Assembly: GCA_002383485.1 (NCBI GenBank)
Contig: DFYY01000012.1
Coordinates: forward strand, 37,717-101,716
Direction of reading: 5' to 3'
Source of the DNA: Bacteroidales bacterium UBA4070
Lineage (GTDB): Bacteria; Bacteroidota; Bacteroidia; Bacteroidales; VadinHA17
DNA length: 64,000 nt
The notes under the pieces were generated by a model. The model saw only the letters and a program-made list of their open reading frames with translations. It was not told the DNA's origin and ran no database searches. Positions 2,941-41,276 of this stretch are shown one piece after another (positions within the stretch are counted from its first letter, which is position 1; every line of letters begins with the position of its first letter). The translations under genes were made by a program, and so were the position numbers.

Positions 2941-4896
2941 ATGGGTTTAAGAACTACAATATTTACAATGGCTCTGACCATGCTGCTGACCCAGTTAACA
3001 AGCGGCCAGAATTTTCATACCCGCTCCAACAGGGCTCTCAAATACTATCATCAGGGCAAGCGGGATTATGAATTCCTCTATTATGACCGTGCTGAAAGTA
3101 ATCTTAAACTGGCAGTGGAAGAGGACAACCGCTTCTATGAGGCTCACATAATGCTTGGCCAGCTCTATACTGATACAGGCGACTGGGAGAAGTCGGTGAC
3201 ACATTACCGCTCTGCAGTAAGAATAGATTCTCTCTACTTTACACCGGCTCTCTTCAGCCTGGGCAGGGCTGAGCTCAGGACGGGGAGATATTTCGATGCG
3301 CTGAACCACCTTGAGGCTTACCTCAAACAACCGGGCGTGACGCCAAAGCTCAGGGTTGAGGCGGAGAAGATGATAGCAAGCTGTCGTTTCGCCCTGACTT
3401 TCCCTTCGTCGCTCTATGAGATGGAGCCTGTAAGCGCCGGCGATTCGGTAAATACCGTTCTGGATGAGTACTGGCCATCAGTCACAGGTGACGGACAGCA
3501 ACTGATCTTCACTCGTGAGGTAAAGCGGGCAGCAGGTTATGGCCGCGATTACAATCGTGACAGGCAGGAAGACTTTTACGTCAGCAGGTGGGTGGCTGAC
3601 GGTTACTGGGGCACGGCCCGTAATGCCGGGGCACCGCTGAACACATCAGGGAACGAAGGGGCACAGTCTATCTCCTCTGACGGCAGATATATGTTCTTCA
3701 CTGCCTGCGACCGGAATGACGGACAGGGCAGGTGTGACATCTACTTTTCTTCAAATGACGGCAACCGGTGGTCACCCGGATTGAATCTCGGCCCGCCTGT
3801 CAACTCTGCATACTGGGAGTCCCAGCCTTCGATCAGCCCAAACGGAAATATGCTCTTTTTTGTCAGCAACAGACCTGGTGGCATGGGAGGCATGGATATA
3901 TGGTATTCTACCCGCGGCAGCGACGGAAAGTGGAGTAAGCCTGTTAACCCGGGTAAGGCCATCAATACCACGGGCGACGAATTTTCGCCCTTTATCTACT
4001 TCAATGGGCGGACACTTTATTTTTCATCCAATGGACGTGAATCCTTCGGGGGACATGACATTTATGTCACTACCCTGGCGCGTGACTCTGGCTGGACAAC
4101 GCCGGAGAATCTCGGACCTCCGGTGAATACTCCGGCGGATGAAACCGGTCTTGTCATAGAATCATCAGGCAGAAGAGCCTATTTCTCCTCAGTCCGGAAT
4201 AAGGATAAAGGCAAGGACATCTATTATCTTGATCTTCCGGAATCGGTTCAGCCTGAGCCTGTTTCATATTTCAGGGGTAAGGTGATTGATAAAGCGTCGG
4301 GCCAGCCTATCACAGCCAGGTATGAGCTTTCAGACCTGACCAGGAGGGCCGGGGTAATAAACTCGGTCACAGACAGCAGGGGAGAGTTCTTTGTATGCCT
4401 GCCCCAGGGAAGTAGCTACGGACTGAATGTAACAGCCCCGGGTTACATGATATTCTCCGAGAACTTTGACTTCGTCGAAGGTTATACATCCTCGGAACCT
4501 TACCTCAAGACAATCGCCCTGAACAGAGTAAGAAAAGGCGAATTCATGAGGATGTACAATGTGTTTTATGATACCGACTCATGGGAGTTGCTGGAGTCAT
4601 CACTGCCGGAGCTGACACAGCTGCTTGAATTTCTGAATGTCAACCCGACAGTTGTCATAGAGATTGGTGGTCACACTGATTCGGACGGAAGTGAAGAACA
4701 TAACCAGCGGCTTTCAGAAAGAAGAGCAGATTCGGTAAGGGAATTTCTGATAAAGAGGGGCATTGACGGTGAGAGGATCTTTTCTCATGGTTATGGCGAG
4801 ACCACTCCTGTGGCTGACAATATAACACCAGCCGGCAGGAAGCTCAACAGACGGACTGAAATCACGATCCTGTCTGAAGGTACAATCAGGAAATAA
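2941..4896 (+). CDS. OmpA-family protein with N-terminal TPR and TolB-like (PD40/WD40-like) beta-propeller repeats
   Basis: 651 aa with a signal peptide. Repeated motifs of the type E..PS.SPDG..L.F.S.R and GG.DIY. C-terminal OmpA motif GHTDSDGSEEHNQRLSERRADSV. Confidence 0.85.
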   Translation: MGLRTTIFTMALTMLLTQLTSGQNFHTRSNRALKYYHQGKRDYEFLYYDRAESNLKLAVEEDNRFYEAHIMLGQLYTDTGDWEKSVTHYRSAVRIDSLYFTPALFSLGRAELRTGRYFDALNHLEAYLKQPGVTPKLRVEAEKMIASCRFALTFPSSLYEMEPVSAGDSVNTVLDEYWPSVTGDGQQLIFTREVKRAAGYGRDYNRDRQEDFYVSRWVADGYWGTARNAGAPLNTSGNEGAQSISSDGRYMFFTACDRNDGQGRCDIYFSSNDGNRWSPGLNLGPPVNSAYWESQPSISPNGNMLFFVSNRPGGMGGMDIWYSTRGSDGKWSKPVNPGKAINTTGDEFSPFIYFNGRTLYFSSNGRESFGGHDIYVTTLARDSGWTTPENLGPPVNTPADETGLVIESSGRRAYFSSVRNKDKGKDIYYLDLPESVQPEPVSYFRGKVIDKASGQPITARYELSDLTRRAGVINSVTDSRGEFFVCLPQGSSYGLNVTAPGYMIFSENFDFVEGYTSSEPYLKTIALNRVRKGEFMRMYNVFYDTDSWELLESSLPELTQLLEFLNVNPTVVIEIGGHTDSDGSEEHNQRLSERRADSVREFLIKRGIDGERIFSHGYGETTPVADNITPAGRKLNRRTEITILSEGTIRK

Positions 4897-5009: not shown

Positions 5010-5825
5010 TCAGATTGCTATCTTATTCTCCGAAGAGGAACCGGTAAGTATTTTCAAGCCGGGACTTTCCTTTGCTGGTAATGAAACAAATACGGATGTA
5101 CCTCCTGCTTCGTTTGTCTCAACCCTGATAGAGCCATCCATTGCAAGAATAAGATTTCTGGCCAGGATTAAATTCATAGCGGAATAGGTATCCTGACTTT
5201 CGGAATGTTGGATCTCAGGATTGTCGGAAAGCAGCAGATCACTGCTTCTGGGGTAACCCTGGCCAGAATCTTTTACGTAAAATGTTGTCTTCTCATCACT
5301 GTATGTGCACCCCACCTTTATAAACCCTGAAAAAGTGTGGTCAAGTGCATCACGGAAGAGATTACTGACTATTCTTGTTGTCCGTGCAGCATCTATCTTC
5401 AGCATAAGCCTGTCAGGCAGGTTGTCTTCCTGTATCAGAACGACATTGTCGCGTCCCTTTTTCCTCATGAAAACCCTGAAATCAGAGGTAAGTGACTCGA
5501 AAAGTCTTGTGATGTCGGTCTCACGCAGGCTCTCCCTTGTTGCTCCGGTCTCGAGGACCGCCGTGTCAAAGAAATTCTCAAACAACCCGACCAGCTGTTC
5601 GCATGAGGAGATGATCTGCTCTGAGAACTCTCTTTTTTCATTGTCACTGAATCTCTCGTTGTTCATAAGATAAGAGAAGGCTACAATGGAGTTCATCTGA
5701 GTTCTTACCTCATGTGATACGCCTGCAAGTATATTTGGTTTATTGATCATTTTGTTCAGTTTTTCCTGCCCTGTCGCCACTGCCGAACCCATCTCATGCC
5801 AATTATTGCGAAGAATCTCGAACAT
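5010..5825 (-). CDS. soluble histidine-kinase-like protein (HisKA + HATPase_c, atypical ATP-lid)
   Basis: 271 aa with no TM or sensor domain. H-box SHEVRTQMNSI and G1-like DSGQG are present. The N-box reads NLFRDAL and the G2 box (GxGLGL) is not recognisable. It lies 18 nt downstream of the anti-sigma-like gene. Confidence 0.7.
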   Translation of the reverse strand: MFEILRNNWHEMGSAVATGQEKLNKMINKPNILAGVSHEVRTQMNSIVAFSYLMNNERFSDNEKREFSEQIISSCEQLVGLFENFFDTAVLETGATRESLRETDITRLFESLTSDFRVFMRKKGRDNVVLIQEDNLPDRLMLKIDAARTTRIVSNLFRDALDHTFSGFIKVGCTYSDEKTTFYVKDSGQGYPRSSDLLLSDNPEIQHSESQDTYSAMNLILARNLILAMDGSIRVETNEAGGTSVFVSLPAKESPGLKILTGSSSENKIAI

Positions 5826-5843
5826 ATGAACAGATTTACTCTT

Positions 5844-6590
5844 TTATTTTAATTTGCGTGACAGCCTGGCAGCCTGCCTCTTGTACCTGCTTTCCGATGC
5901 AGCTATCGACCTGAACTGGCTCAAGGCTTTTTCCCGGTTGCCGGTCATCATGTAGCAGAGTCCCAGATACCATTCCGCATCTTCAAGATAAAGGTTGTCA
6001 TTGTGCTCTATGACGCGTGAGAAGGAACCGCTGGCTACCGGGTAATTCTTAACCTCCATGTTGGCCATACCGTGCATGAAGACCGATTCCATATCATTCC
6101 GGTCCGAGTTGATAATCTGTTCAAGGAATATAATGGCCTTCTCATATTCCTTTGCGGAGTAGGAGGCTATGGCGTTTTCCATCAATGCATTTCCTTCACC
6201 TGATGCTGACCTCACAGCCCCCGGGGATTCATACCTTGTATAACTGGAGGCATAGAGCTGCTCAGGCGATGTCCCGGGCTTCAGCTCCAGGTATATGGCG
6301 CTGGAAATAAGTGCTATAAGGGCAACGGCAGCAGCATACCTGGCACCCTTTACTATTATACCGCGCAGAGGTACGGCAGCACGTTTTTTCCTGCCTATCA
6401 CGCTGAGCTTGCTCCTCAGTTCCATTACCTGCCTGTTTGCAAGGATCTCATCGGTCCTTCGCCTTAGATTCACTTCCCTTGCCAGCTCCGGATCCTTCGC
6501 CATCTCGCCTGCAAGCCATTCACGGCCTGCTCTGTCAGCCCGGCCTCCAAGCCAGTCTTCAATGGCATTGTTGACATTCTTTGTCTTCAT
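5844..6590 (-). CDS. single-pass membrane TPR protein, putative anti-sigma factor
   Basis: 248 aa. Charged N-terminal domain of about 80 aa (AIEDWLGG...DPELAREV), one TM segment (YAAAVALIALISSAIYL) and a C-terminal TPR-like region of about 145 aa. Confidence 0.55.
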   Translation of the reverse strand: MKTKNVNNAIEDWLGGRADRAGREWLAGEMAKDPELAREVNLRRRTDEILANRQVMELRSKLSVIGRKKRAAVPLRGIIVKGARYAAAVALIALISSAIYLELKPGTSPEQLYASSYTRYESPGAVRSASGEGNALMENAIASYSAKEYEKAIIFLEQIINSDRNDMESVFMHGMANMEVKNYPVASGSFSRVIEHNDNLYLEDAEWYLGLCYMMTGNREKALSQFRSIAASESRYKRQAARLSRKLK

Positions 6591-6778
6591 CTTGATATTA
6601 TTATTTCACACTTATAAAAAACTACCCGTCAGTTAGTTTATTACAATCAGCCCGTTACCTTCAGGGCGCCTTACTATGGGGCGCATACGCTCCCGGATGA
6701 ACGGCCGGCTCTGCCTCAGGCAGATCCTTCCACGTCAATATATATACCTGCCGGCTCACACCGGCACAGTCATTTGAT

Positions 6779-6916
6779 TCAGATCTCGATTATCACCGGA
6801 GGCCTGGTAGGTTCAATACCCGTATTGCTTCTGCCGCCGTTGCCGCCGCGAATATTTATCATTTCCTCGTTTGAAAGAACAAATTCAGTGAAGTTTTCGA
6901 TTGTCAGGGTTTTCAT
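6779..6916 (-). CDS. double-glycine (GG) leader peptide precursor, 45 aa
   Basis: Manual reverse-complement translation gives MKTLTIENFTEFVLSNEEMINIRGG / NGGRSNTGIEPTRPPVIIEI, then stop. LSNEEMINIRGG fits the LSxxELxxIxGG leader consensus. The gene is too short for the supplied ORF track. Confidence 0.7.
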   Translation of the reverse strand: MKTLTIENFTEFVLSNEEMINIRGGNGGRSNTGIEPTRPPVIIEI

Positions 6917-7127
6917 GTTTTCAAGAATTAAATTGTTATGTCAGGATTTAATTGGTGTTTATACCGTACATGTCAGAAGATGTCGTTTTGTGACACGAAA
7001 AAATCAACTTTTTTTCAAAAAAAATGCAACATACTGAAATACAGGTCTGTATAAAATGTAAAATATTGCTGTCACTTTAACGGATTGTTTTATACTTTTA
7101 CCGACGGAAGAGAGAAGAACCATTTTG

Positions 7128-10100
7128 ATGAGCCTGGGGGCACGTATAGTATCCATTCCTTTCCTGCTTTTTGCTGTTTTATGCGGATTACCTGCAATAG
7201 CGCTCGGAACCTGGCATCCGGGTAAAGAGGTTATTGAAGGAACAGTAATAGGGGAGAAGAGACTGAGGGAGTTGACGGACTCACTCTCTGTTCTGTTGGA
7301 GACGGGATCTGACGCGCCGGGCAAGGCTGAGATGGCATCAGAGATAGAAGCCATTATTTCCGGCGACGTTATTAAGGATACCCTTCTGCTGTCTGATGCT
7401 TATTATTTTTTGGGTGTTCAGCATTATCAGTCGAACCGTTTCGCTAAAGCCTTTGACTGTTTCAGTATCTCAGTATTTTACAGGGAGCGACTCTCGCTGT
7501 CAGACAGGAGATATGCCAACGGGCTGGCAAATATGGCTGTGTCACTTTTAAAGACAGGTGATTACATGCGTGCATCAGTGCTGGGGACAAAGGCACTTGA
7601 GGCAAAGCGGGCAATCTCGGGCAGTGACTCATCAGGTCTGGTGACCAATTACGTTAACCTGGCCAGTATCAACCTTGAGTTGAATGAAACAGACAGCGCC
7701 ATTGAAAGGGCAGAGGCCGGGCTGAGGATTGCCAAGCTCTACCCCGATGCGGTACCGGTGAAGGTAATAGCCGACCTGTATCATGTAATAGGACTCGGTC
7801 TTTACCGTAGCCAGGAATACAACAAATCCCTGGCTTACTGTGGGGAGGCTCTCAGGATGTACGAAAAGGATCCGGCTGCCAGCGTTGACTCGAGGATATT
7901 GATGCACAATACCATGGCCCAGGTTCACCGACGGATGGGTCAGCCCCGGGAGGCTGAGGCACAATTTCTCAAGGGCCTTGCAATCAGGGATAGCCAGAAT
8001 ACCCAGGATAAATTTCTGCTTTACATAAACTATGCGGGTTTTCTGATCCGCAACGGACGTGCAGCCGAGGGAGAGCAGGTCCTGAAGTCGGGGCTGGACC
8101 AGGTAAGCAATGCATTCGGTCCGGATAGCCGTGAATATTACATGATGCTTGCCTCGGCCGCGGAACTGGTATACGATGACCCTGAAGACAGGGACCGGGC
8201 CATAGCCATTTATGATAAGTGTCTTGAATATGTTCGCCAGAATCCCTGGGATCATTCAATGGGAAAATTTATCCTTGCCAGGTACGCCAGGGAACTTTCA
8301 GATGCCGGGAGGTATGCCAGGGTTATTGATCTGACGGATTACCTTGCTGCTGACACCATGGCGGCAGATGCCGTCTCTGAGGAAGACTTCTTCCTGCTGG
8401 GATTGAGGTATGAGGCTTTGAATACGCTTGCCGGCAGAAGAAACAACACTGATCTTCTCAGGCAGGCTGTAGCCACCGGACGAAGGATCACTTCCCTGTA
8501 TGACCGGCAAAGGCTTGAGATGAGTGAGGAGGATAGCAGGACCAGCCTAAGCTCTTCGGCCAGGGGTATCTATACCGGCTTAATTGAGAACTATGCTGCT
8601 CTCTATGAGAGCAATGGTGACCGTGAATCGCTGGAGGGTCTGTTCGAATACGCCGAGAGGAGTAAGGTTGCCGGTTTCCTGGCATCAATGAGGGAACTGA
8701 ACGCTGCCCGGTTCTCGCTGCCGGAGGAGCTGACTGAGCTTGAGGCAGGTATCCGCAGTGAGATAGGGTTATACAGGGAACTGATGACCACGGAAAGGCT
8801 TAAAGCAGTGCCTGACACCCAGCGGCTGGCCACCTGGGAGAGCGTAACCTTCAGGCTGCATCGCTCCCGAGACTCGCTTGTGAACATCTTTGAACAGGAT
8901 TATCCGGCTTACTACAACCTGAAATTCAGGAACGAAGTAACCCCGCTGCGTGATGTCGGCAAAGTCATCGGACAGAGGGCAAACCTTCTAAGCTATGTTC
9001 TTACTCAGGACAGGCTTTACATCTTTGTTGCCAACCACAGGAGGAGCGAGGTGATAAAAAAGGATATTGACTCCTCCTTCTTCACATTGCTTACACGTTT
9101 TCGCGAGATGGTGTCAACACCACCTGACCCAAGCGGTTCACGTGCCCCGTTCAACGAATACATGGATCTGGCTTACAGCCTTTACCGTATACTCCTTGAG
9201 CCGGCTGAACCTTTTCTTGCCGGCGATAAGATAGTCATCTCTCCGGATAACCTCCTTTCCTACCTGCCCTTCGAAACGCTTGTAACCGAAGAGTTCCGCA
9301 GTCCCGGTCTGCTCTACCGCGAGGCACCCTTCGCCCTTAAGAAATACCGGTTTTCCTATATCTACAGCGTGACCCTTTCGTCAGAGACGTTACAGCGAAG
9401 CAGAAGCCTGAGCAACAGGCTGATAGCCTTTGCTCCGTCCTATGAGGGAGTTGAGATAGATGATTCCCTCCTTGTATCATGGCCATCCCTCAGGGGAGAG
9501 ATACATGAGCTGCCCTACGCCATTATGGAGGCTGAAGATGTTGTTAATCAGTGCGGAGGGCGGGCCTTTACAGGGGCTGAAGCCAGTGAGGGAGCCTTTA
9601 AGCGCGAAGTAAAGAACTACAAGATCATACACCTGGCCATGCACACGCTGGTTGATGACAGCAGACCTGCATTCTCCAGGATGCTCTTCACTCCAAGCGG
9701 TGGTGACACCGAGGACGGCATGCTTAATACCTATGAGGTATACAGCCTGCCGATCAAGGCAATGATGGTGGTACTCAGCTCCTGCAATACCGGGTCAGGG
9801 ATGCTGGTGAACGGGGAGGGCATACTGAGCCTGGCACGCGGTTTCCTTTATGCCGGAAGCCGTTCGGCAGTGATGTCAATGTGGGCTGTGGATGACATAT
9901 CTGCCTCGGAGGTAATTCACTCCTTCTACAGGAATCTGAGAAGCGGGCAGACCAAAAGCTCTGCACTCCGCAACGCCAGGCTGAGCTACCTGGAAGATGC
10001 ACTTCAGAGAAGGTCTCATCCCTACTACTGGTCTGCGCTTGTGATATACGGCGACGATACGCCGCTGTGGTATAACAGGGTAAAACTCTACACAGGGATC

Positions 10101-10163
10101 CTCTTCTTTATGCTTGTGGCGACGCTGCTATTTGCATTGGTCTACAAAGGACCGAGGTCCTGA
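7128..10163 (+). CDS. TPR repeat + CHAT domain (caspase-like) protein with N-terminal signal peptide and C-terminal TM anchor
   Basis: About 1011 aa counted from ATG 7128 (a TTG lies at 7125). Hydrophobic N-terminus ends in AIALG. There is a long TPR region. CHAT motifs are IIHLAMHTLVD (His), VVLSSCNTGSG (Cys) and HPYYWSALVIYGD. The C-terminal TM is GILFFMLVATLLFALVY followed by KGPRS. Confidence 0.85.
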   Translation: MSLGARIVSIPFLLFAVLCGLPAIALGTWHPGKEVIEGTVIGEKRLRELTDSLSVLLETGSDAPGKAEMASEIEAIISGDVIKDTLLLSDAYYFLGVQHYQSNRFAKAFDCFSISVFYRERLSLSDRRYANGLANMAVSLLKTGDYMRASVLGTKALEAKRAISGSDSSGLVTNYVNLASINLELNETDSAIERAEAGLRIAKLYPDAVPVKVIADLYHVIGLGLYRSQEYNKSLAYCGEALRMYEKDPAASVDSRILMHNTMAQVHRRMGQPREAEAQFLKGLAIRDSQNTQDKFLLYINYAGFLIRNGRAAEGEQVLKSGLDQVSNAFGPDSREYYMMLASAAELVYDDPEDRDRAIAIYDKCLEYVRQNPWDHSMGKFILARYARELSDAGRYARVIDLTDYLAADTMAADAVSEEDFFLLGLRYEALNTLAGRRNNTDLLRQAVATGRRITSLYDRQRLEMSEEDSRTSLSSSARGIYTGLIENYAALYESNGDRESLEGLFEYAERSKVAGFLASMRELNAARFSLPEELTELEAGIRSEIGLYRELMTTERLKAVPDTQRLATWESVTFRLHRSRDSLVNIFEQDYPAYYNLKFRNEVTPLRDVGKVIGQRANLLSYVLTQDRLYIFVANHRRSEVIKKDIDSSFFTLLTRFREMVSTPPDPSGSRAPFNEYMDLAYSLYRILLEPAEPFLAGDKIVISPDNLLSYLPFETLVTEEFRSPGLLYREAPFALKKYRFSYIYSVTLSSETLQRSRSLSNRLIAFAPSYEGVEIDDSLLVSWPSLRGEIHELPYAIMEAEDVVNQCGGRAFTGAEASEGAFKREVKNYKIIHLAMHTLVDDSRPAFSRMLFTPSGGDTEDGMLNTYEVYSLPIKAMMVVLSSCNTGSGMLVNGEGILSLARGFLYAGSRSAVMSMWAVDDISASEVIHSFYRNLRSGQTKSSALRNARLSYLEDALQRRSHPYYWSALVIYGDDTPLWYNRVKLYTGILFFMLVATLLFALVYKGPRS

Positions 10164-10708
10164 TACTCCGTATCTGTTTTTATGATCTCCATCAATGCTT
10201 CCTTGCAGAGGTATTTTTTTCTTCTGGCGTAATCTTCATTCTTAAAACCCATCCTGCGTGCAATCTCCTCATAGGAAAGACCCTCTCCGAAAAGGGTCAG
10301 TATCACCTGACAATCCTCTCCCAGCAGGGCATAGGAGCGGGTGACTATCTGCTCCAGCAGGGCACTGTTTGCCTCTTCTGCTTCAGCATTGTCTTCCGGG
10401 TCAGCCGTGATAGACACCAGCCTTGAACGGTATCTGAGCTGGCTGTTCCATACGTTGCGTGCCACACCGAAGAAATATCCCTTCAGGTCTGTGGTAAGCC
10501 TGAACCCGTCACCTGTGACCTGTTTGTAGATTATGACCACCGTTTCCTGGAGCACCTCATGTGCATCATCATCCGATCCGCTGTTTTTGCTGACGTGATC
10601 ACGGATCATTTCGAAATATGCTTCGTAGAGGTAGGTAAGAATCCTGTTGTCCTGCCTCCTGATACCATCAACGATGTCAGCGTCCGAAAACTTTCTGAAT
10701 AATCCCAA
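10142..10708 (-). CDS. sigma-70 family (ECF-like) RNA polymerase sigma factor
   Basis: 188 aa with a region-2-like N-terminal half, an acidic linker and a region-4 HTH (LSYEEIARRMGFKNEDYARRKKYLCKEAL). The only upstream in-frame start is TTG at 10708. The 3' end overlaps the CHAT gene by 22 nt. Confidence 0.75.
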   Translation of the reverse strand: MGLFRKFSDADIVDGIRRQDNRILTYLYEAYFEMIRDHVSKNSGSDDDAHEVLQETVVIIYKQVTGDGFRLTTDLKGYFFGVARNVWNSQLRYRSRLVSITADPEDNAEAEEANSALLEQIVTRSYALLGEDCQVILTLFGEGLSYEEIARRMGFKNEDYARRKKYLCKEALMEIIKTDTEYQDLGPL

Positions 10709-10725
10709 GCAAGCGGTTTAATAGG

Positions 10726-10733
10726 CAAATATA
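10726..10733 (-). promoter_or_regulatory. candidate Bacteroidota -7 promoter box (TATATTTG) for the sigma factor gene
   Basis: The minus strand reads TATATTTG (TAnnTTTG consensus) 18 nt upstream of the TTG start. Confidence 0.35.
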
Positions 10734-10849
10734 CAATTTCCGCAATCGATTACTGAAAAAAGGAGTTTGGCACAAATTCAACAGCCCTGCCTCAAGCAGG
10801 TAAATAATTGGATATATTTACGGGTTCAAACTTCCACTCTGCAGGTTCA

Positions 10850-13036
10850 ATGGCATATCCTTTCGTAAGGCAATATGATGCAATGGATTGCGGGCCGGCA
10901 TGCATAAGCATGGTAGCCCTGAGTCACGGCAAGCGCCTGTCCCTTGAGACAATCCGGAAGAGAGCATGGATCACCCGTGAGGGAGTCTCTTTACTCGGAC
11001 TGAAAACGGCTGCCGAGAGCATCGGGTTCAGGGCGGCAGGAGTGAAGATACCTTTCAGCAGGCTTGTAAATGATGCTCCGATGCCATGCATTGTGCACTG
11101 GCGGCAGAACCACTTTATTGTGGTTAACAGGGTGAGCAGCAAGACTGTATGGGTGAGTGATCCGGCCATTGGCAGGCTGAAGATGACCCATGACGAGTTT
11201 CTGGAGGGATGGTTGCCTGGCGAGGGTGGTGAAGAACCCACCGGGCTTGCACTGCTGCTGGAGCCGGGCCCCACTTTTGCCGCGTTGCAGGATGACCCTC
11301 CGCCAAAGGGGGGATTTGAATTCCTGTTACCCTATCTGAAACCATACCACCGGCAGATAGTGCTGCTTATTCTCGGATTGATACTGTCGGGTGGCATCCA
11401 GCTTCTTTTTCCCTTCATGACCCAGGCCATCATTGACAGGGGGATTGCTGGCCGTGACATAAGTTTCATATGGCTCATTCTTGCAGGTCAGCTGGCCCTG
11501 ACACTTGGCAGGCTGGCTGTCGAGTTCACCAGGGGATGGCTCATTCTTCACGCAGGATCGCGACTGAACATCACAATCGTTTCGGATTTCCTGGCGAGGC
11601 TGATGGGTCTGCCCATTGCATACTTTGACACGAAGCTTAACGGAGACATTCTGCAACGCATTGATGACAACAGCAGGATAGAGAGTTACCTGACATCTTC
11701 GAGCCTTGCCATTCTCTTCTCGCTCTTCAACTTCATTGTCTTCGGAGTGGTTCTGGGCATATACAGTCTTAAGGTTCTGCTTGTTTTCCTGGCCGGCACT
11801 GCCCTTTACGTACTGTATGTGACTCTCTTCATGCCGGCCAGGGAGAGGCTTGACAACATCCGTTTCATGCAGATGGCTGAGGCTGGCAACCGGATGATAA
11901 ACATAGTGAACGGCATGCAGGAGATAAAACTGGCAGGCAATGAAGCCTCCAACAGGAGGGAGTGGGAATCGATGCAGAAAGAGATCTATGCCACCCGTGT
12001 GCGCGGACTCCGTATCATGCAGTTTCAGACTGCGGGAGGAACGCTTATTCACGAATCAGTAAACATCATTATCACGGTTATATCGGCCACGCTGGTTATC
12101 AACGGTTCACTGACCCTCGGCATGATGCTTGCCGTGCAGTTCATAACGGGGCAGCTTAACGGTCCGGTATCACAGATTGTCAGCTTCATGAGAGCTACCC
12201 AGGATGCACAGATAAGCCTCGGAAGACTGGCGGAGGTGCATGCCATGGAACCGGAGGAGGCGGAGGGGAGGAATGGAGAGTCTGAGATGCCTGAAAAAGC
12301 AGATATTGAGATAAGTAACCTTTCTTTCCAGTATGAGGGTCCCGGCTCTCCCTGGGTTCTGCGGAACCTGGACCTGGTCATCCCGGCCGGGAAGATCACT
12401 GCCGTGGTGGGTGAGAGTGGTTCGGGTAAGACCACGCTCCTGAAGATGCTGCTTGGATACTATCCTCCTGCCGGGGGATGCATAACAGTGGGGGGAAGGC
12501 AACTTGACGGAATAAGCATCTCTTCGCTGCGGCGAAACACAGGCGCCGTGATGCAGGAAGGATACATCTTTCCGGATACGATACTCGGTAACATTGCTCC
12601 GGGTGAGGATAACCCGGATATTGACAGTGTGGCCGAGGCTGTGAAAGTGGCCAGCCTGAAACAGCTTCTGGACGAACTCCCTTCAGGCCTGCAGACCCGT
12701 GTGGGACAGGGCGGCCACGGACTCAGCCAGGGACAGCGGCAACGCATTCTCATAGCCAGGGTGGTTTACAAGCAGCCCTCCCTGCTGCTTCTCGATGAAG
12801 CCACCAGTGCCCTTGATGCCTCAAATGAAAGAATGATTGTTGAGAATCTTGCCGGGTTCTATGCCGGCAGGACGGCGGTCATCGTGGCTCACAGGCTGAG
12901 CACGGTACGGCATGCTGACAGAATCGTGGTGCTTGAAGGCGGAAGAGTGACAGAGTCCGGTTCCCACGCCGAACTCGCTGCGCTTAAGGGGACCTATTAC
13001 AGGCTCATAAAAGATCAGCTTGAGCTTGGACGCTGA
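10850..13036 (+). CDS. peptidase C39 domain-containing ABC transporter (bacteriocin/peptide exporter type)
   Basis: C39 residues are intact: QYDAMDCGPACI (Cys), QNHFIVV (His), VSDPA (Asp). Six-TM ABC membrane domain. Walker A GESGSGKTT, signature LSQGQRQR, Walker B LLLLDEATSALD. ATG 10850 is preferred over TTG 10808. Confidence 0.9.
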   Translation: MAYPFVRQYDAMDCGPACISMVALSHGKRLSLETIRKRAWITREGVSLLGLKTAAESIGFRAAGVKIPFSRLVNDAPMPCIVHWRQNHFIVVNRVSSKTVWVSDPAIGRLKMTHDEFLEGWLPGEGGEEPTGLALLLEPGPTFAALQDDPPPKGGFEFLLPYLKPYHRQIVLLILGLILSGGIQLLFPFMTQAIIDRGIAGRDISFIWLILAGQLALTLGRLAVEFTRGWLILHAGSRLNITIVSDFLARLMGLPIAYFDTKLNGDILQRIDDNSRIESYLTSSSLAILFSLFNFIVFGVVLGIYSLKVLLVFLAGTALYVLYVTLFMPARERLDNIRFMQMAEAGNRMINIVNGMQEIKLAGNEASNRREWESMQKEIYATRVRGLRIMQFQTAGGTLIHESVNIIITVISATLVINGSLTLGMMLAVQFITGQLNGPVSQIVSFMRATQDAQISLGRLAEVHAMEPEEAEGRNGESEMPEKADIEISNLSFQYEGPGSPWVLRNLDLVIPAGKITAVVGESGSGKTTLLKMLLGYYPPAGGCITVGGRQLDGISISSLRRNTGAVMQEGYIFPDTILGNIAPGEDNPDIDSVAEAVKVASLKQLLDELPSGLQTRVGQGGHGLSQGQRQRILIARVVYKQPSLLLLDEATSALDASNERMIVENLAGFYAGRTAVIVAHRLSTVRHADRIVVLEGGRVTESGSHAELAALKGTYYRLIKDQLELGR

Positions 13037-13045
13037 CTTTTTGCC

Positions 13046-13228
13046 TTACTTCTTCCCGGAATATGGTTCGTAATCATCAGGCTGATCCCTGAGGCCGCCT
13101 CTCTTTCCAAAACCAGTACCCGGTTTTCCGGTTAAACCGTCATTTTTTTTCTTCGCGTACTTGCGATAGAGTGAAAAGCCGGCGAAGACAAAAGCTGCCG
13201 CCAGGATTATGTAGTCTTTGTTTTCCAT
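13046..13228 (-). CDS. small membrane protein, 60 aa (hypothetical)
   Basis: Internal ATG of the 109-aa track ORF. Translation is MENKDYIILAAAFVFAGFSLY followed by a Lys/Gly-rich tail. One TM segment. Confidence 0.4.
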   Translation of the reverse strand: MENKDYIILAAAFVFAGFSLYRKYAKKKNDGLTGKPGTGFGKRGGLRDQPDDYEPYSGKK

Positions 13229-13411
13229 AGGTAAATGACCTGAAACTTGAATGACAAATTTAAGCATTTTGGAGATTGACCGGAGCCGCATTTCATTTAA
13301 ATGTTGTATTGGTTTGAGTTTTACCAATAATCCATTATTTTCGTGGTTTGAAAAATGGAGGGGAATTGCATGCAATCCTTCTTTGTATGAAGCACTGAAG
13401 AAAAGGGATTA

Positions 13412-15526
13412 ATGATGACTACAAAAAATCCGGGAGATTCTGTTCATGATGAACAATTCGACGGAACTGAAAAGGCCGCCGAATCTACGCAAGAGACAAA
13501 TGATGCTGAAGCTTTGCCTGTAATGCCGGCGGATGACCTCCGCACAGGGGATGATGAGACCCGCATGGAAACCATAGAGGCTGACGAGACTGAAGTTGCC
13601 GAACAGTCCGAAGAACAGACTGCAACAGCTGAAGATGCCGAAGAACAGGCTGCAACAGCTGAACAGACCGAAGAAATTACTGCAACAGCTGAAAATGCCG
13701 AAGAACAGGCTGCAACAGCTGAACAGGGCAAAGAGGAGACTGTTGTTGCTGAACGGGCTGAGGAAGAATCGGTCAACTATGACGAGATCGAACTGCCTCC
13801 GGTGGATTACAGCGGTTTCTCAAGAAAGGATCTGGTGGAGACACTGGCCCTGATAGTTGAGAACAGACCACCGGCAGAGATCATTGACGATGTTGCCCGC
13901 ATCAAGGAGTTCTTCTACAAGAAGACGAAGGCAGAGTTCAATGAAAAGCGGCTGAATTTTGCGAAGGAAGGAGGTAACATAGAGGATTACAAATCCGAGC
14001 CGGATGAACTGGAAAACAGGATAAAGGGGATCCTGGAGACTTACCGCAACCGCAGGAGTGATTTCAACAGGATACAGGAAAGCGAAAAGCAGGATAACCT
14101 GCGCAGGAAGCTTGAGATAATCGAACAGATAAAGGATCTGGTCAACCGCGAGGAAGCCATAAACAAGACCTTTCAGGAGTTTCGCAACCTGCAGAGCGCA
14201 TGGCATAACACGGGCATTGTTCCTCAGACAGCCGTCAAGGATCTGTGGGAGAACTATCACCACAGCGTGGAGATGTTCTATGATTACATCAAGATCAACC
14301 GTGAGCTCAGAGACCTTGACCTGAGGAAGAACCTCGAGTCCAAGATAGTTCTCTGTGAAAAGGCAGAGGAACTCCTGATGGAGCCCAACGCCGTTACAGC
14401 GTTCAAGCTTCTCCAGGATTACCATAACCAATGGCGGGAGATCGGTCCGGTACCGCATGAGAACAAGAACGATGTCTGGGAGCGCTTTCGCGAAGCCACA
14501 ACCAAGGTAAACAAGAGGCACCATGAGTACTTTGAGAAACAAAAGGATGACCAGAAGAAGAACCTCGATGCAAAAACTGCCCTCTGCGAAAAGGTAGAAG
14601 AGATTGCTGCAGGCGAAATACTCACTTTTGCCGATTTCAAGGAAAAATCCGATGCCATTCTTGAGTGTCAGAAGCTCTGGAAGACAATCGGTTTCGCCCC
14701 GAAGAAGCACAACAACAAGATATACCAGCGGTTCAGGACCGCCTGCGACAGCTTCTTTGAGAAGAAGCGCACATTCTTTGCCGACAGCAAAGAGATACAG
14801 GTAAAGAACCTTCAGATCAAGACAGAACTATGCCTCAAGGCTGAAGCCCTTCAGGAGAGCACTGACTGGAAAGAGACCTCCGAAATGCTCATCCGGCTTC
14901 AGAAGGAGTGGAAGGAGACTGGACCGGTGCCGAAAAAATATTCAGAGAAAATATGGAAACGGTTCCGTAAGGCATGTGACACCTTCTTTACAAGGAAGTC
15001 TGAATATTTTGCCGGCAGGGATACTTCATACGAAGACAACCTGAAATCCAAGCTGGCAATCATCGAAGAGCTCGAGGCCTTTGACCCGGGTGATGACATG
15101 AAGGCAGGCTTTGAAAAGCTTAAGGATATCCAGAAACGGTGGACTGAGATCGGTTATGTTCCCTTCAACAGGAAGGAGGAGATAGCATGGCGTTACAAGG
15201 AGGCTCTCAATAAGAAGTTTGACAAACTGAAGCTTGATGACGAGGACAAGAATATCCTTCGGTACAGGAGCAAGGTAGACAATGCCAGATCCAATCCCCG
15301 TGCCGCCAGTAAGGTGAGAAACGAGCGCGAGAAGTTCTACAGCAGGATCAAACAGTTGGAGAGTGATATTGTTCTCTGGGAAAACAATATCGGGTTCTTT
15401 GCCAAATCGGCCAAAGCTGACACCATGATCAAAGAGGTTGAGGAGAAAATTGCAGAAGCTAAGAGAAACATCAAGATTCTCGAAGAGAAGGTAAAGCTGA
15501 TTGACAACTCGATGTACGAAGATTAG
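13412..15526 (+). CDS. DUF349 repeat protein with acidic repetitive N-terminus
   Basis: 704 aa. At least five repeats of the type W(K/R)E.GP.P.....(I/V)W.RFR.ACD.FF, for example KIYQRFRTACDSFF and KIWKRFRKACDTFF. Confidence 0.8.
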   Translation: MMTTKNPGDSVHDEQFDGTEKAAESTQETNDAEALPVMPADDLRTGDDETRMETIEADETEVAEQSEEQTATAEDAEEQAATAEQTEEITATAENAEEQAATAEQGKEETVVAERAEEESVNYDEIELPPVDYSGFSRKDLVETLALIVENRPPAEIIDDVARIKEFFYKKTKAEFNEKRLNFAKEGGNIEDYKSEPDELENRIKGILETYRNRRSDFNRIQESEKQDNLRRKLEIIEQIKDLVNREEAINKTFQEFRNLQSAWHNTGIVPQTAVKDLWENYHHSVEMFYDYIKINRELRDLDLRKNLESKIVLCEKAEELLMEPNAVTAFKLLQDYHNQWREIGPVPHENKNDVWERFREATTKVNKRHHEYFEKQKDDQKKNLDAKTALCEKVEEIAAGEILTFADFKEKSDAILECQKLWKTIGFAPKKHNNKIYQRFRTACDSFFEKKRTFFADSKEIQVKNLQIKTELCLKAEALQESTDWKETSEMLIRLQKEWKETGPVPKKYSEKIWKRFRKACDTFFTRKSEYFAGRDTSYEDNLKSKLAIIEELEAFDPGDDMKAGFEKLKDIQKRWTEIGYVPFNRKEEIAWRYKEALNKKFDKLKLDDEDKNILRYRSKVDNARSNPRAASKVRNEREKFYSRIKQLESDIVLWENNIGFFAKSAKADTMIKEVEEKIAEAKRNIKILEEKVKLIDNSMYED
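13621..13740 (+). repeat. in-frame tandem repeat, 2 x 60 nt (30-nt sub-period), encoding TATAE(D/N)AEEQAATAEQ
   Basis: Segments 13621-13680 and 13681-13740 align directly, with 45 of the first 46 nt identical. The repeat lies inside the DUF349 gene. Confidence 0.9.
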
Positions 15527-25143: not shown

Positions 25144-25199
25144 CCAGCCTGTTATCACATTGTTGATAATTATTAGGGATAATTATCGCTCCTGAGTAT

Positions 25200-25207
25200 T
25201 ACCTTTG
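25200..25207 (+). promoter_or_regulatory. candidate -7 promoter box (TACCTTTG) driving the B12 riboswitch operon
   Basis: Matches TAnnTTTG and ends 5 nt before the riboswitch P1 stem. Confidence 0.45.
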
Positions 25208-25212
25208 TCTTA

Positions 25213-25396
25213 TTCTGGTGCTGCCGGTATTTCGGCAGTGAAAAGGGAACCCTGTGAGAATCAGGGACAGTACCCGCTGCTGTGAAGCCCGTTCCGTCGC
25301 AAGACGGATCATTACAGCCGGAATTCCCGCCACTGTTCGCCATCTGGCGGACGGGAAGGCCCGGTTAGTAGGGATGAGTCAGAAGACCTGCCAGAA
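25213..25396 (+). promoter_or_regulatory. cobalamin (B12) riboswitch
   Basis: P1 stem TTCTGG (25213-25218) pairs with CCAGAA (25391-25396). Conserved core elements are GTGAAAAGGGAACCCTGTGAGAATCAGGGACAGTACCCGCTGCTGT, GCCACTG, GGGAAGGC and the B12-box-like AGTCAGAAGACCTGCC. It sits directly upstream of a TonB-dependent receptor. Confidence 0.88.
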
Positions 25397-25432
25397 GGTA
25401 TCCTGTTGAAGGAGCTTTCGGGAATAAAAGTC

Positions 25433-27427
25433 ATGATAAAGAGGTTATCAGCCTATATCATCCCTGCGTCTCTGAGACGCCTGCCGCTTTCAGCGGTTGC
25501 AGCAATGCTGCTTGTTCTTGTTCCGTTTACCGTAGGTGCGCAGGACATTTTCAGCGAGGATACTGTAAATATAAATGCAGTCACCGTCACTGCCCGGGCG
25601 GCAGCACGGGTTACCCCATATACTGTGGTAGAGATTGACCCTGATCTGATTTCACGCCGTAAGGGAGATGACATGGCAACACTGCTTCAGTCTTCAAGCC
25701 TGCTATATGTAAAACGGTACGGTAATCACGGACTGGCATCAGTTTCAGTCAGGGGGCTTTCAGGCAGCCACACCCTTGTGACCTGGAACGGAATGCCGGT
25801 CAACGCACCCGGCAATGGATACAGTGACTTCACGGTTATCCCGGTTGTGGCAGCTTCGTCAGTACAGATCACATCAGGCGGCTCTGACCTGAATGACCTT
25901 TCCGGCTACCTTGGAGGCAAGGTGGAACTCTCCTCAAAGCCGCTCTTCGGGTCAGGAACTGAAGCCTCGATGAGCCTCAGTGCAGGGAGCTACGGTGACT
26001 ATGGCTCGTCGGCAGTGCTTACGCCGGGCGGGACTAATTTATCTGTCAGGGCCGGCGGATGGGCAAATAAATCACGAAACGATTTTCTCTTCATCAACCG
26101 TGATGCACCGGGAGGAGAGGCACTCATGCGAAGAACCAACGCAGCCTTCTCATCCGGAGGTTTTACAGGTGATATTTTTTACCGGACTGATTACTCCAGG
26201 ATAAGCATGCATGTCTGGTTCAGCGACACGGAACGCGAGCTTCCCGGGCCGGTGACAACGGTACAGCAGGATTTCAACGAGAGGCAGACCGACAGGTCTT
26301 TCAGAGGCGTGGTTAATTATTCACTGGAGCATGGAAGACTCACTGCTGATGTAACAGCCGGCGGTCAGTGTGAGTTCAACAGGTATTACCACATGGTAAC
26401 ATCATACAACGGCGACAACAGCTCGTCATCTGCAATTATAAGGGCGAAGGTTGCTCTGAGGGTCACTCAGAATACCTCGTTGGAATTTCGTGCCGGAGAC
26501 AGCTACGAAAAAGCAGTCACCCTGAGCTACGACGGAGCGGAGATCCGGAATCTGATTTCATTCTCGGTGGCAGGCAGGTCAAATCCCCTGCCGAGGCTGA
26601 ATCTCCTTCTGCAGGCCAGGCAGACGGCAGTGACTGGAATGAAAGTCTCCCCAGAGTTTACTGCAGGGGCTTCATGGCTCATGACCCCCGGCGGTGAGCA
26701 CCTTCTTAAGGCGAGCCTTAGCCGTAATTCCCGGCTTCCGTGCCTTAATGATCTCTATTGGATCCCCGGAGGAAACCCTGACCTCGTTCCTGAGAATGCT
26801 GCAGGAGGGGAAGTCTCCTGGTCTTTCCTCAGGGTATGGCCGTCGGGATCACGGGGCAACTTCGACCTGACTCTTCACGGTTCTCATGTGAACAATCTCA
26901 TACAGTGGGTGCCCGGACAATCGGGACTATGGCAGGCGGAGAATGTAAGGGACGTTAACATCGCCGGGGCAGAAGCCAGGGTTGGAAGGGATCTTTCAAT
27001 CCGAAACTGGATCCTGCGCGGAGTATTCAACTACTCCTTCGCCCGATCGGTTGTTGCCGCTACTGAAGTTGCCAACGACAGGTCACCAGGGCGTCAGCTT
27101 ATCTATGCGCCGTTACATCATGCCAACCTGAATCTCGGAGCCACGGGAAAATGGTTCAGGACAGGCCTTACAGCAGCATGGGAGAGCAGACGCTATACCA
27201 CCTCAGACAACAGCGAGTGGCTGCCAGGATCCCTCATGACTGATGCCTTTGCCGGAGCAGATTTCAGGACAGGTGCAGCAGGATGGAGAGCGGAGATTGC
27301 AGTAAACAACCTCCCCGGACTGGCCACCGAGAGCGTGAGAAACTACCCGATGCCACTCAGAACATTTAAAATAAAACTAACGCTGACCTGGTCAGAAAAA
27401 AAGAAAAAAGATGAAACACGTGATTAA
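25433..27427 (+). CDS. TonB-dependent receptor, BtuB-like (riboswitch-controlled)
   Basis: Signal peptide, then plug-domain motifs (ATLLQSSSLLYVKRYG, SVRGLSGSHTLVTWNGMPVN) and a long beta-barrel. ATG 25433 is preferred over TTG 25406. Confidence 0.85.
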   Translation: MIKRLSAYIIPASLRRLPLSAVAAMLLVLVPFTVGAQDIFSEDTVNINAVTVTARAAARVTPYTVVEIDPDLISRRKGDDMATLLQSSSLLYVKRYGNHGLASVSVRGLSGSHTLVTWNGMPVNAPGNGYSDFTVIPVVAASSVQITSGGSDLNDLSGYLGGKVELSSKPLFGSGTEASMSLSAGSYGDYGSSAVLTPGGTNLSVRAGGWANKSRNDFLFINRDAPGGEALMRRTNAAFSSGGFTGDIFYRTDYSRISMHVWFSDTERELPGPVTTVQQDFNERQTDRSFRGVVNYSLEHGRLTADVTAGGQCEFNRYYHMVTSYNGDNSSSSAIIRAKVALRVTQNTSLEFRAGDSYEKAVTLSYDGAEIRNLISFSVAGRSNPLPRLNLLLQARQTAVTGMKVSPEFTAGASWLMTPGGEHLLKASLSRNSRLPCLNDLYWIPGGNPDLVPENAAGGEVSWSFLRVWPSGSRGNFDLTLHGSHVNNLIQWVPGQSGLWQAENVRDVNIAGAEARVGRDLSIRNWILRGVFNYSFARSVVAATEVANDRSPGRQLIYAPLHHANLNLGATGKWFRTGLTAAWESRRYTTSDNSEWLPGSLMTDAFAGADFRTGAAGWRAEIAVNNLPGLATESVRNYPMPLRTFKIKLTLTWSEKKKKDETRD

Positions 27428-28436: not shown

Positions 28437-28475
28437 CCACTTTTTGACTAATTTTAGTGCTGAAACAAAAAGATA

Positions 28476-41270: not shown

Positions 41271-41276
41271 GAAAAA

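Follow-up and report, generated by a model that had tools for sequence, protein, structure and literature searches.

What could bring together, on a bacterial chromosome, a small peptide with a double-glycine (GG) leader, an exporter, a sigma factor, a protease, and two further proteins that look regulatory? The question is raised by six neighboring genes of Bacteroidales bacterium UBA4070 (contig DFYY01000012.1), which we analyzed within a stretch of 64 kb (the window); arrays and RNA families were scanned for over all 64 kb, and proteins were annotated to ~49 kb. The six genes (Table 1) encode a GG-leader precursor peptide; a protein with a transmembrane (TM) segment and tetratricopeptide repeats (TPRs), hereafter the TM-TPR protein; a soluble histidine-kinase-like protein; a TPR-CHAT protease; a sigma factor of the extracytoplasmic function (ECF) type; and a C39-ABC exporter, or peptidase-containing ABC transporter (PCAT). 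An original prediction, made from the DNA sequence alone, had proposed that they form a module for peptide signaling or regulated proteolysis, and the six open reading frames (ORFs) are indeed where it placed them, with the domains that it described. We find that the six genes are a real, conserved functional module of uncultured Bacteroidales. As for what the module does, our preferred reading, to which we give a probability of roughly 40%, is that it is a switch made of an ECF sigma factor and its anti-sigma factor, a split version of the DdvA/DdvS design, that forms an autoinduction loop with an exported peptide that the module itself encodes.

The six genes stay together in different genomic contexts

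The sigma factor belongs to a large family, with 1,472 close homologs that are nearly all exactly 188 amino acids (aa) long and are 63-90% identical. A species-level scan (one genome per species) gave 201 sigma relatives, and we determined the gene order for the best 80 of these 201, all of which are from uncultured Bacteroidales and related metagenome-assembled genomes (MAGs). The order in this lineage is YidC, PyrG, DUF349, exporter, sigma, CHAT, peptide, TM-TPR, kinase, OmpA/PD40, QueE-like, and nucleotidase. All 80 loci retain each portion of this order that their contigs cover, and they do so even where identity in the CHAT and TM-TPR proteins falls to 30-35%. In all 80 loci, the synteny of the housekeeping flanks (YidC, PyrG, and DUF349 on one side; OmpA/PD40, QueE-like, and nucleotidase on the other) equals that of the module, so synteny among close relatives does not, on its own, prove functional coupling.

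More distant sigma factors were drawn from an exhaustive search of cluster representatives (1,976 clusters at 50% identity with E < 1e-10), and 11 outgroup contexts were inspected on their contigs. (A profile search with the distant sigma factors returned the same lineage again.) Four sigma relatives at 36-42% identity (loci L086, L087, L090, and L095) carry the same six-gene set: a sigma factor, a convergent TPR-CHAT gene, a GG-leader ORF of 46-69 aa, a TM-TPR protein of ~250 aa, a soluble protein with HisKA and HATPase_c domains, and a C39-ABC exporter. In three of these loci (L086, L090, and L095), the exporter has been relocated from beside the sigma gene to downstream of the kinase, and the flanks are not related to those of the window. 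L087 retains part of the window's flank and the position of the exporter. More generally, a TPR-CHAT gene adjoins or lies near the sigma gene in 8 of the 11 outgroup contexts. Because the gene set moves between contexts yet stays together, chance juxtaposition is excluded. The original prediction had named gene order in relatives as the observation that would tell a module from chance neighbors, and in distant relatives with different flanks the genes still form a conserved unit. That the genes are adjacent only by chance or lineage history, within a region whose whole gene order is conserved, would agree with the equally syntenic flanks of the 80 loci; this explanation is already refuted by L086, L090, and L095, which combine unrelated flanks and a moved exporter with the same gene set, the candidate promoter motif of the peptide gene (below), and the convergent sigma and CHAT genes.

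The sigma and CHAT genes converge tail to tail in every module locus. In the window, they overlap by 22 nucleotides (nt) (10142-10163). The 3' ends overlap by 4-32 nt in L086, L087, L090, L091, and the close relatives (L006-L059), and they are 6 nt apart in L095. This overlap could lead to transcriptional interference or hold a shared bidirectional terminator. Within the close group of the lineage, the overlap encodes ...QDLGPL and a stop codon on one strand and ...GPRS and a stop codon on the other.

We considered the QueE-like radical SAM gene and the OmpA/PD40 gene as further parts of the module and rejected them, as both are absent from L086, L090, and L095. The product of the OmpA/PD40 gene (2941-4896) is a TPR/PD40/OmpA protein that resembles the type IX secretion protein PorE (293.8 bits, versus a cut-off of 600); because the gene is not in those three contexts, it is probably outside the module. 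Also, in L091 (13586-20582), the sigma and CHAT genes are followed by insertion sequences of the ISL3 and IS66 families, and cas1/cas2 lie a few kb further on.

All six genes of the window were called by independent gene callers on identical public metagenome contigs. The callers differ on the start of the exporter (TTG at 10808, giving 742 aa, or ATG at 10850, giving 728 aa), and the 45-aa ORF is uncalled on one of the identical contigs.

Table 1. Genes and control elements of the module, in order of their position in the window
Feature	Positions	Strand	Details
Soluble histidine-kinase-like protein	5010-5825	-	271 aa; Pfam HisKA 1.7e-7 and HATPase_c 3e-10
TM-TPR protein, probable anti-sigma factor	5844-6590	-	248 aa; TPR matches only (Pfam, PDB)
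GC-rich hairpin	6748-6769	-	directly 3' of the peptide stop codon
GG-leader precursor peptide	6779-6916	-	45 aa, MKTLTIENFTEFVLSNEEMINIRGG / NGGRSNTGIEPTRPPVIIEI
Two-block motif GTGTCACAAA-N12-GACATGTA	6967-6996	-	upstream of peptide gene
TPR-CHAT protease	7128-10163	+	1011 aa; Pfam CHAT 4.4e-53, TPR_12 1.8e-24
ECF-type sigma factor	10142-10708	-	188 aa; TTG start; TIGR02937 47.7 bits
TATATTTG, -7 box, housekeeping type	10726-10733	-	upstream of sigma gene
TATATTTAC, -7-like box, housekeeping type	10813-10821	+	upstream of exporter gene
PCAT exporter	10850-13036	+	Peptidase_C39 1.9e-34, ABC_membrane 8e-32, ABC_tran 8e-30

The TM-TPR protein is probably the anti-sigma factor

The sigma factor passes the general ECF model TIGR02937 (cut-off, 42.9 bits), and its family profile covers most of the length of the ECF structures SigL, sigma-E, SigH, and SigW (E = 1e-11 to 1e-10). 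The window's protein scores 20.5 for Pfam r2 (gathering threshold of 24) and 19.6 for r4_2 (threshold of 25.7), and both domains are recorded in many relatives. Judged by its sequence, it is an ECF-type sigma factor of an unnamed subfamily whose conserved C-terminus reads ...YARRKKYLCKEAL...DP.Y. This family is broader than the module, since one member (39% identity; L088, 2452-16664) stands without CHAT, TPR, or PCAT genes. It lies in what is likely an integrative mobile element (integrase, HTH_17, AAA_25, and RadC).

The TM-TPR protein has a charged helical N-terminus, one hydrophobic segment at about residues 83-103, and TPRs at its C-terminus. In a Saprospiraceae MAG (L093), a full-length homolog of 259 aa is encoded 53 nt downstream of a related sigma gene (hhalign 98.3%, E = 1.4e-14, 219 columns). 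In L092 and L094, the protein encoded after the sigma factor shares just the N-terminal domain and the TM helix with the TM-TPR protein (93.8% and 94.9%, respectively); its gene overlaps the sigma gene in L092 and starts 10 nt after it in L094. In L096, the gene for a 250-aa protein has a 4-nt overlap with the sigma stop codon, and a TPR-CHAT gene lies 2.3 kb from this pair; here the comparison is based on gene position and a faint TPR-type (ANAPC3) match and not on profiles. Because homologs of the TM-TPR protein sit in the canonical arrangement of sigma and anti-sigma genes in relatives, it is a probable anti-sigma factor, in line with the role first suggested for it. Gene order in these relatives also makes it quite likely that the protein is the cognate anti-sigma factor of the module's own sigma factor.

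About 25 residues outside the membrane, the anti-sigma homologs carry a juxtamembrane motif, Y-E-x(5-12)-R-[SAG] (residues ~117-128 in the window's protein), whether or not TPRs follow. The Arg of this motif (Arg127) is present in 17 of 18 homologs, including those without TPRs. This stretch is a plausible candidate for a site-1 cleavage site or a protease recognition site.

The CHAT protease appears to be intact and periplasmic

The CHAT protein consists of a signal-like N-terminus, TPR_12 repeats, the CHAT domain, and a C-terminal TM helix that is followed by KGPRS. The catalytic His (in HLAMH) and Cys (in LSSCN[ST]G; LSSCNTG in the window) are invariant in 30 orthologs and in the outgroups. 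On this sequence evidence, the protein, which had been proposed to be a protease, is predicted to be intact. Orthologs and outgroups likewise retain the signal peptide and, at the C-terminus, the TM helix and its basic tail, so the protease is probably periplasmic and tethered to the inner membrane.

The peptide gene is under selection and encodes a variable core

The peptide comprises a leader of 25 aa and a core of 20 aa. In all 69 loci with a readable interval, a GG-leader ORF lies between the CHAT and TM-TPR genes. The leader VLSNEEMINVRGG is conserved across loci, and so is its end, ...LSNEEMINIRGG. In pairwise comparisons, the differences at codon positions 1, 2, and 3 are 0.10, 0.08, and 0.31 for the leader and 0.20, 0.09, and 0.56 for the C-terminal 11 codons. 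This bias towards the third position implies that the ORF is translated and under purifying selection. With this coding signature and its presence in 69 of 69 loci, the 45-aa ORF, which the original prediction had picked out, is a genuine selected GG-leader gene.

The middle of the core is hypervariable and its C-terminus is conserved (PT[RK]PP[VI]IIE[ILF]). More precisely, the last ten residues of the peptide are conserved and the 7-8 residues before them are hypervariable, with entropies of 2.5-3.1 bits. A basic residue before the C-terminal PP motif is conserved in the close group; in the far branch of the lineage, the peptide ends in PP[IV]KI. GG-leader peptides are encoded at the equivalent position in L086, L087, L090, and L095. 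The cores are 16-38 aa long, lack Cys, and are neither amphipathic nor cationic; those of the four outgroup loci are acidic or rich in Gly and Pro. This pattern would fit a specific ligand better than a membrane-active bacteriocin.

We also asked if the peptide is the precursor of a ribosomally made peptide with post-translational modifications (RiPP). Its match to TIGR04149, a family of GG peptides that are modified by radical SAM enzymes, is below the cut-off (18.6 versus 25 bits), and no modification enzyme is encoded beside the peptide in any module locus. The sole radical SAM gene nearby (2314-2940, 208 aa) has its best matches to models for QueE (7-carboxy-7-deazaguanine synthase), below their cut-offs, and it belongs to the flanking synteny. 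The module therefore differs from TIGR04149 RiPPs both in its score and in having no adjacent radical SAM/SPASM maturase.

Exporter, adaptor, and kinase-like protein

The PCAT has a C39 domain, a six-TM ABC domain, and an ATPase, and it keeps the catalytic motif (QYDAMDCGPAC, for QxxxxDCGPAC). It is predicted to cleave the GG leader and to export the peptide. A HlyD-type adaptor gene adjoins the PCAT gene in 23 loci of the far group as well as in L087, L090, and L095, and not in L086. (Examples are at 6348-7640 in L060, 6235-7551 in L087, and 18523-19887 in L090.) In the window, the gap between the exporter and the DUF349 gene is ~375 bp (13037-13411). In this lineage, the peptide may be delivered to the periplasm only, or an unlinked adaptor may be used.

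The kinase-like protein has ~30 residues before its H-box and no hydrophobic segment, TM helix, or sensor domain. Its gene is downstream of the TM-TPR gene on the same strand, 18 nt away, and it directly follows the TM-TPR gene in nearly all loci of the lineage (not in L080 or L084) and in L086, L087, L090, and L095. The phospho-acceptor His is present in the window's protein and is Arg in 5 of 58 orthologs, which keep the N and G1 boxes. These five are far-group species (L060, L061, L064, L075, and L077; at ~14.9-16.0 kb of each locus) with SRE instead of SHE in the H-box and an intact DxGxG. Since the His is replaced while the ATP-binding boxes stay, the conserved function of this protein may not be His phosphotransfer. 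In the outgroup module loci, we saw no response regulator gene within 10 kb on either side of the sigma gene; the lineage loci were checked for the twelve syntenic genes only.

A conserved motif precedes the peptide gene alone

To locate control elements, we aligned the intergenic regions across loci (76 regions for the sigma-exporter interval). The peptide gene alone bears a conserved two-block motif, GTGTCACAAA-N12-GACATGTA (also written TGTCACAAA-N12-GACATGTA). The motif occurs once in the window and is conserved in both the close and the far groups. In 63 of 64 loci, a GTCAC directed at the peptide gene lies 63-108 nt upstream of its ATG; in the remaining locus, the distance is 35 nt because the start codon was called differently. 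In L087, L090, and L095, a T-tract and then TGTCAC[AG] are found upstream of the peptide gene, and L086 has GGTCAC. The module's sigma factor may use the two-block motif as its promoter; otherwise, the motif may be an operator.

The other genes of the module have different upstream elements. TATATTTG is a conserved block upstream of the sigma gene, GTAAAtATATccA (on the opposite strand) is a conserved block upstream of the exporter, and the CHAT gene has a box that is similar to TAnnTTTG, which we take to be the Bacteroidetes housekeeping consensus for the -7 element. Two other candidates were rejected: a TGTCAC directed at the CHAT gene, considered as a shared promoter, is present in the window and its closest relative only, and TGGCACAAA, which lies upstream of the exporter and resembles a sigma-54 element, is not conserved. 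The suggestion that the sigma factor drives the peptide and exporter genes alike thus did not hold up: the special motif is found on the peptide gene only, and the exporter, sigma, and CHAT genes have -7 boxes of the housekeeping type.

Just past the peptide gene, a hairpin with the stem GCCGG...CCGGC is conserved in the close-group alignment and present in the predicted fold. In L086, L087, and L090, a GC-rich inverted repeat can be read downstream of the peptide gene in the unfolded sequence. A scan of the spacer between the peptide and TM-TPR genes found no canonical terminator, and the hairpin has no T-run. The predicted RNA fold of the spacer has z = -0.8, and the first hairpin alone is conserved. 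This hairpin may act as a terminator or attenuator that separates the peptide gene from the genes for the TM-TPR and kinase-like proteins, which may be transcribed by read-through from the peptide gene.

The regulatory genes can lie in a lanthipeptide cluster

In L094 (1078-14686), the sigma factor, an anti-sigma factor with a homologous N-terminal domain, and a TPR-CHAT protein with a signal peptide form one operon inside a class I lanthipeptide cluster. The cluster also includes a split LanB, LanC, a PCAT, an adaptor, and two GG-leader precursors that are rich in Cys and Thr (81 and 75 aa). This locus ties the trio of sigma factor, anti-sigma factor, and CHAT protease to the production of GG-leader peptides more generally. 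The context would also fit autoinduction by product sensing, which is known for lantibiotics.

A proposed switch

In the switch that we propose, the sigma factor would at rest be held at the membrane by the cytoplasmic N-terminal domain of the anti-sigma factor. The PCAT would cleave and export the peptide, which in most relatives would leave the cell via the adjacent HlyD-type adaptor. In the window's lineage, which lacks the adjacent adaptor, the peptide would perhaps get no further than the periplasm. There, the mature peptide would be recognized by the TPRs of the anti-sigma factor or of the TPR-CHAT protein, with the conserved C-terminus of the peptide as the likely contact. The CHAT enzyme would then act as a site-1 protease and cut the anti-sigma factor at the juxtamembrane YE...R-S, and intramembrane and cytoplasmic proteolysis would free the sigma factor. 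The free sigma factor would transcribe the peptide gene from the TGTCAC motif, and the anti-sigma and kinase-like genes would be reached by read-through past the hairpin. The outcome would be an autoinduction loop with built-in resetting. The soluble kinase-like protein might modulate the cytoplasmic side.

Several observations weigh against this scheme. First, the anti-sigma factor is not of a recognized kind. No known anti-sigma family matches the N-terminus of the TM-TPR protein, either among the Pfam matches of 34 members (among the 25 commonest of the 59 families with matches at E ≤ 1) or in a profile search of the PDB, where matches were within the TPRs only. One outgroup member has a weak match to zf-HC2 (E = 0.019). 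No HxxxCxxC zinc motif is found in residues 1-80 of the window's protein or its orthologs. An AlphaFold2 model (from 51 sequences) has four N-terminal helices with predicted local distance difference test (pLDDT) values of 46-72, plus the TM helix; the model is poor overall (mean pLDDT of 53). Second, the sigma and anti-sigma genes are not adjacent in the module (they are 3.5 kb apart in the window), and the sigma family includes members that have no module around them. Third, the conserved juxtamembrane Arg is only suggestive of a cleavage site, because known CHAT enzymes do not all have the same P1 specificity.

Other points concern transcription and export. The outgroups keep only the first block of the motif, and the second block is variable. 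As the two blocks are in part inverted repeats of each other (TGTCA...TGACA), a dimeric regulator might use the motif as its operator, in which case it would not be a promoter. The region upstream of the sigma gene has a housekeeping-type box and no copy of TGTCAC, so the sigma factor is not visibly autoregulated. (Not every ECF sigma factor has an autoregulated promoter.) Apart from the module's own genes, no output regulon can be seen. A HlyD-type adaptor is found neither in the 64-kb window nor in any locus of the close group. Finally, the kinase-like protein has no place in a scheme that consists purely of sigma factor, anti-sigma factor, and proteolysis.

Alternative explanations

The peptide could be a product and not a signal. 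The module would then be a production locus for an unmodified bacteriocin- or RiPP-like effector or some other extracellular factor, and the sigma/anti-sigma pair would merely regulate it. The CHAT enzyme would be a periplasmic protease for maturation or trimming (for example, at the basic residue before PPVIIEI, where such a residue is conserved in the close group), or it would have an immunity function, instead of acting at site 1. With its GG leader and active PCAT, and with a HlyD adaptor in relatives, the locus has the classic export set of bacteriocins and RiPPs; the peptide has its weak match to a family of RiPP precursors; and, as the main support, the trio of L094 is found inside a lanthipeptide cluster. 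However, no module locus has a modification enzyme, and the composition of the cores, described above, is not that of a membrane-active peptide. Furthermore, the adjacent adaptor, which secretion across the outer membrane would require, has been lost in the lineage of the window, yet the rest is under purifying selection. Nor does this explanation account for L092 and L096, where TM-TPR-type and CHAT genes accompany the sigma gene and there is no peptide or PCAT. We consider it unlikely that production is the whole purpose of the locus.

A second alternative starts from the adjacent, co-directional genes for the TM-TPR and kinase-like proteins. These might be the receptor and the soluble kinase of a two-piece sensor that signals to an unlinked response regulator, which would bind at TGTCA...TGACA; the sigma factor and the CHAT protease would then be a separate pair that happens to be co-located. 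The 18-nt gap in the window, the inverted repeat within the motif, the position of the sigma gene apart from the TM-TPR gene, and the retention of the kinase's ATP-binding boxes would all be expected. It is hard to reconcile with L093 and L096, which have no kinase and in which a TM-TPR-type gene directly follows the sigma gene, or with the five orthologs that have lost the phospho-acceptor His. In addition, no response regulator was seen within 10 kb of the sigma gene in the outgroup module loci, and, when the module changes context, its sigma and CHAT genes move with the rest. We judge this sensor to be improbable.

Third, the module might be an envelope sentinel like DdvA/DdvS that detects phage or other external threats, with a sigma factor that switches on defense genes elsewhere and with the peptide and PCAT as accessories. 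The only characterized pair with a periplasmic TPR-CHAT controls an island that encodes CRISPR and a cyclic-oligonucleotide-based antiphage signaling system (CBASS) (PMC11506125), and a degraded copy of the module is near cas1/cas2 in L091. Against this, the PADLOC matches of the module's proteins are to a generic ATPase only, and neither in the window nor in the examined contexts is the module flanked by defense genes. Unlike typical defense islands, the module is retained by every related species and is surrounded by core housekeeping genes. A sentinel is thus a very improbable explanation.

Relation to known systems

Within our preferred reading of a sigma/anti-sigma switch that responds to its own peptide, the closest characterized system is DdvS/DdvA, a precedent that the original prediction did not cite and which also has an ECF sigma factor, a single-pass anti-sigma factor, and a large periplasmic TPR-CHAT that is tied to the pair. 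In Myxococcus DdvA, the anti-sigma factor is fused to the periplasmic TPR-CHAT, so that the anti-sigma domain (ASD), TM helix, TPRs, and CHAT are on one chain; self-cleavage by CHAT was proposed as the site-1 step but was not shown, and the signal is unknown (PMC11506125). In contrast, the cassette is split over two genes in every locus that we examined (5844-6590 and 7128-10163 in the window): the anti-sigma gene encodes an ASD-like domain, a TM helix, and short TPRs, and the CHAT gene encodes a signal peptide, TPRs, the CHAT domain, and a C-terminal TM helix. The cassette has an invariant, complete CHAT dyad and no zinc-binding ASD. Its sigma gene does not precede the anti-sigma gene but converges on the CHAT gene. 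Beyond the parts shared with DdvS/DdvA, the cassette has a GG-leader peptide, a soluble kinase-like protein, and a PCAT, which in relatives is joined by an adaptor, and no defense island is attached to it. A search of PDB sequences with the CHAT half gave no match at E ≤ 1 and hence no link to DdvA, Csx29, or separase. As we found no sequence similarity and the cassette is not a single chain, we do not consider it a member of the DdvA family.

The sigma-E/RseA/DegS/RseP pathway of E. coli follows the same logic: a periplasmic protease senses a peptide C-terminus and makes the site-1 cut in a single-pass anti-sigma factor, and an ECF sigma factor is freed. The conserved C-terminus of the peptide and the juxtamembrane motif of the anti-sigma factor would fit this logic. 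However, the protease of the cassette is a clan CD CHAT enzyme with TPRs and not a PDZ serine protease, and the candidate activator is a dedicated exported gene product instead of a misfolded outer membrane protein.

The original prediction had drawn parallels to competence signaling in Gram-positive bacteria and to Craspase. The cassette does resemble the Com, Blp, and lantibiotic LanRK systems in its GG-leader precursor, C39-ABC export, inducible-looking peptide promoter, and pherotype-like variable core, and its regulatory part can sit in a lanthipeptide cluster (L094). But, unlike ComC/ComAB/ComDE and BlpC/BlpAB/BlpHR, it has no membrane histidine kinase as a receptor, and no response regulator was seen within 10 kb of the sigma gene in the outgroup module loci; the proposed path is via an anti-sigma factor and a protease, and the organism is diderm. 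The parallel to ComABCDE therefore fails at the receptor, given a soluble kinase and no visible response regulator. Craspase (Cas7-11/Csx29/Csx30/CASP-sigma) likewise links a TPR-CHAT protease to an ECF-type sigma factor and a restraining factor. Craspase is cytoplasmic and RNA-guided, whereas the CHAT protein of the cassette has a signal peptide and a membrane anchor. The cassette lacks Cas7-11, Csx30/31, and a CRISPR array, and its sigma factor scores 21.6 bits on the model for the type III-E sigma factor (cut-off, 100). No array and no Rfam CRISPR match was found in the 64 kb, and there are no cas genes among the annotated ORFs of the window (to ~49 kb), which bears out the lack of an array and of Cas7-11 that had been noted from the sequence; the likeness to Craspase is superficial only.

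Some of the same domains occur together in heterocyst patterning in Anabaena, where the CHAT protease HetF, the C39-ABC exporter HetC, and PatS-type peptides take part in one developmental signaling process. These genes are not a cassette and include no sigma/anti-sigma pair, and the comparison is at the level of domains.

Full-text searches of open-access papers and bioRxiv preprints gave no description of the cassette, and the main text of the ECF reclassification paper contains no CHAT-linked group. The cassette is apparently undescribed so far. For most groups of ECF sigma factors the signal is unknown; here, a candidate ligand is encoded beside the sensor. Five or six cloned genes and a synthetic 20-mer would thus be enough to test the hypothesis that CHAT is the site-1 protease of an anti-sigma factor. 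Should the peptide be the signal, then peptide autoinduction exists in Bacteroidota and operates via regulated proteolysis instead of a two-component receptor. The link to a lanthipeptide cluster suggests a general type of regulator for GG-leader RiPP loci in this phylum. In its fullest form, our reading would make this the first peptide-based, quorum-sensing-like autoinduction circuit described in Bacteroidota, with a new kind of wiring (the exported peptide leads CHAT to cut the TPR anti-sigma factor, and the sigma factor transcribes the peptide gene), the cassette a general product sensor of GG-leader RiPP clusters, and the peptide the first natural ligand for a CHAT site-1 protease, which is what DdvA still lacks; we doubt that all of this will prove correct. 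Also, hundreds of MAG loci could be re-annotated, because the labels that the family now has are just "sigma-70 family," "tetratricopeptide repeat protein," and "CHAT domain protein."

Other features of the window

Outside the module, the annotated ORFs of the window (to ~49 kb) are ordinary chromosomal genes, accompanied by a cobalamin riboswitch and a tRNA. The DUF349 gene next to the exporter has in-frame 30/60-nt tandem repeats near its 5' end (13601-13742, ~2.4 copies of the 60-nt unit). The riboswitch (98.7 bits) is at 25199-25409, upstream of an operon for a TonB-dependent receptor and FecCD-type ABC uptake (25406-33824). Further along, two genes of the aconitase family lie in tandem at 39453-43058 and encode proteins of 605 and 593 aa.

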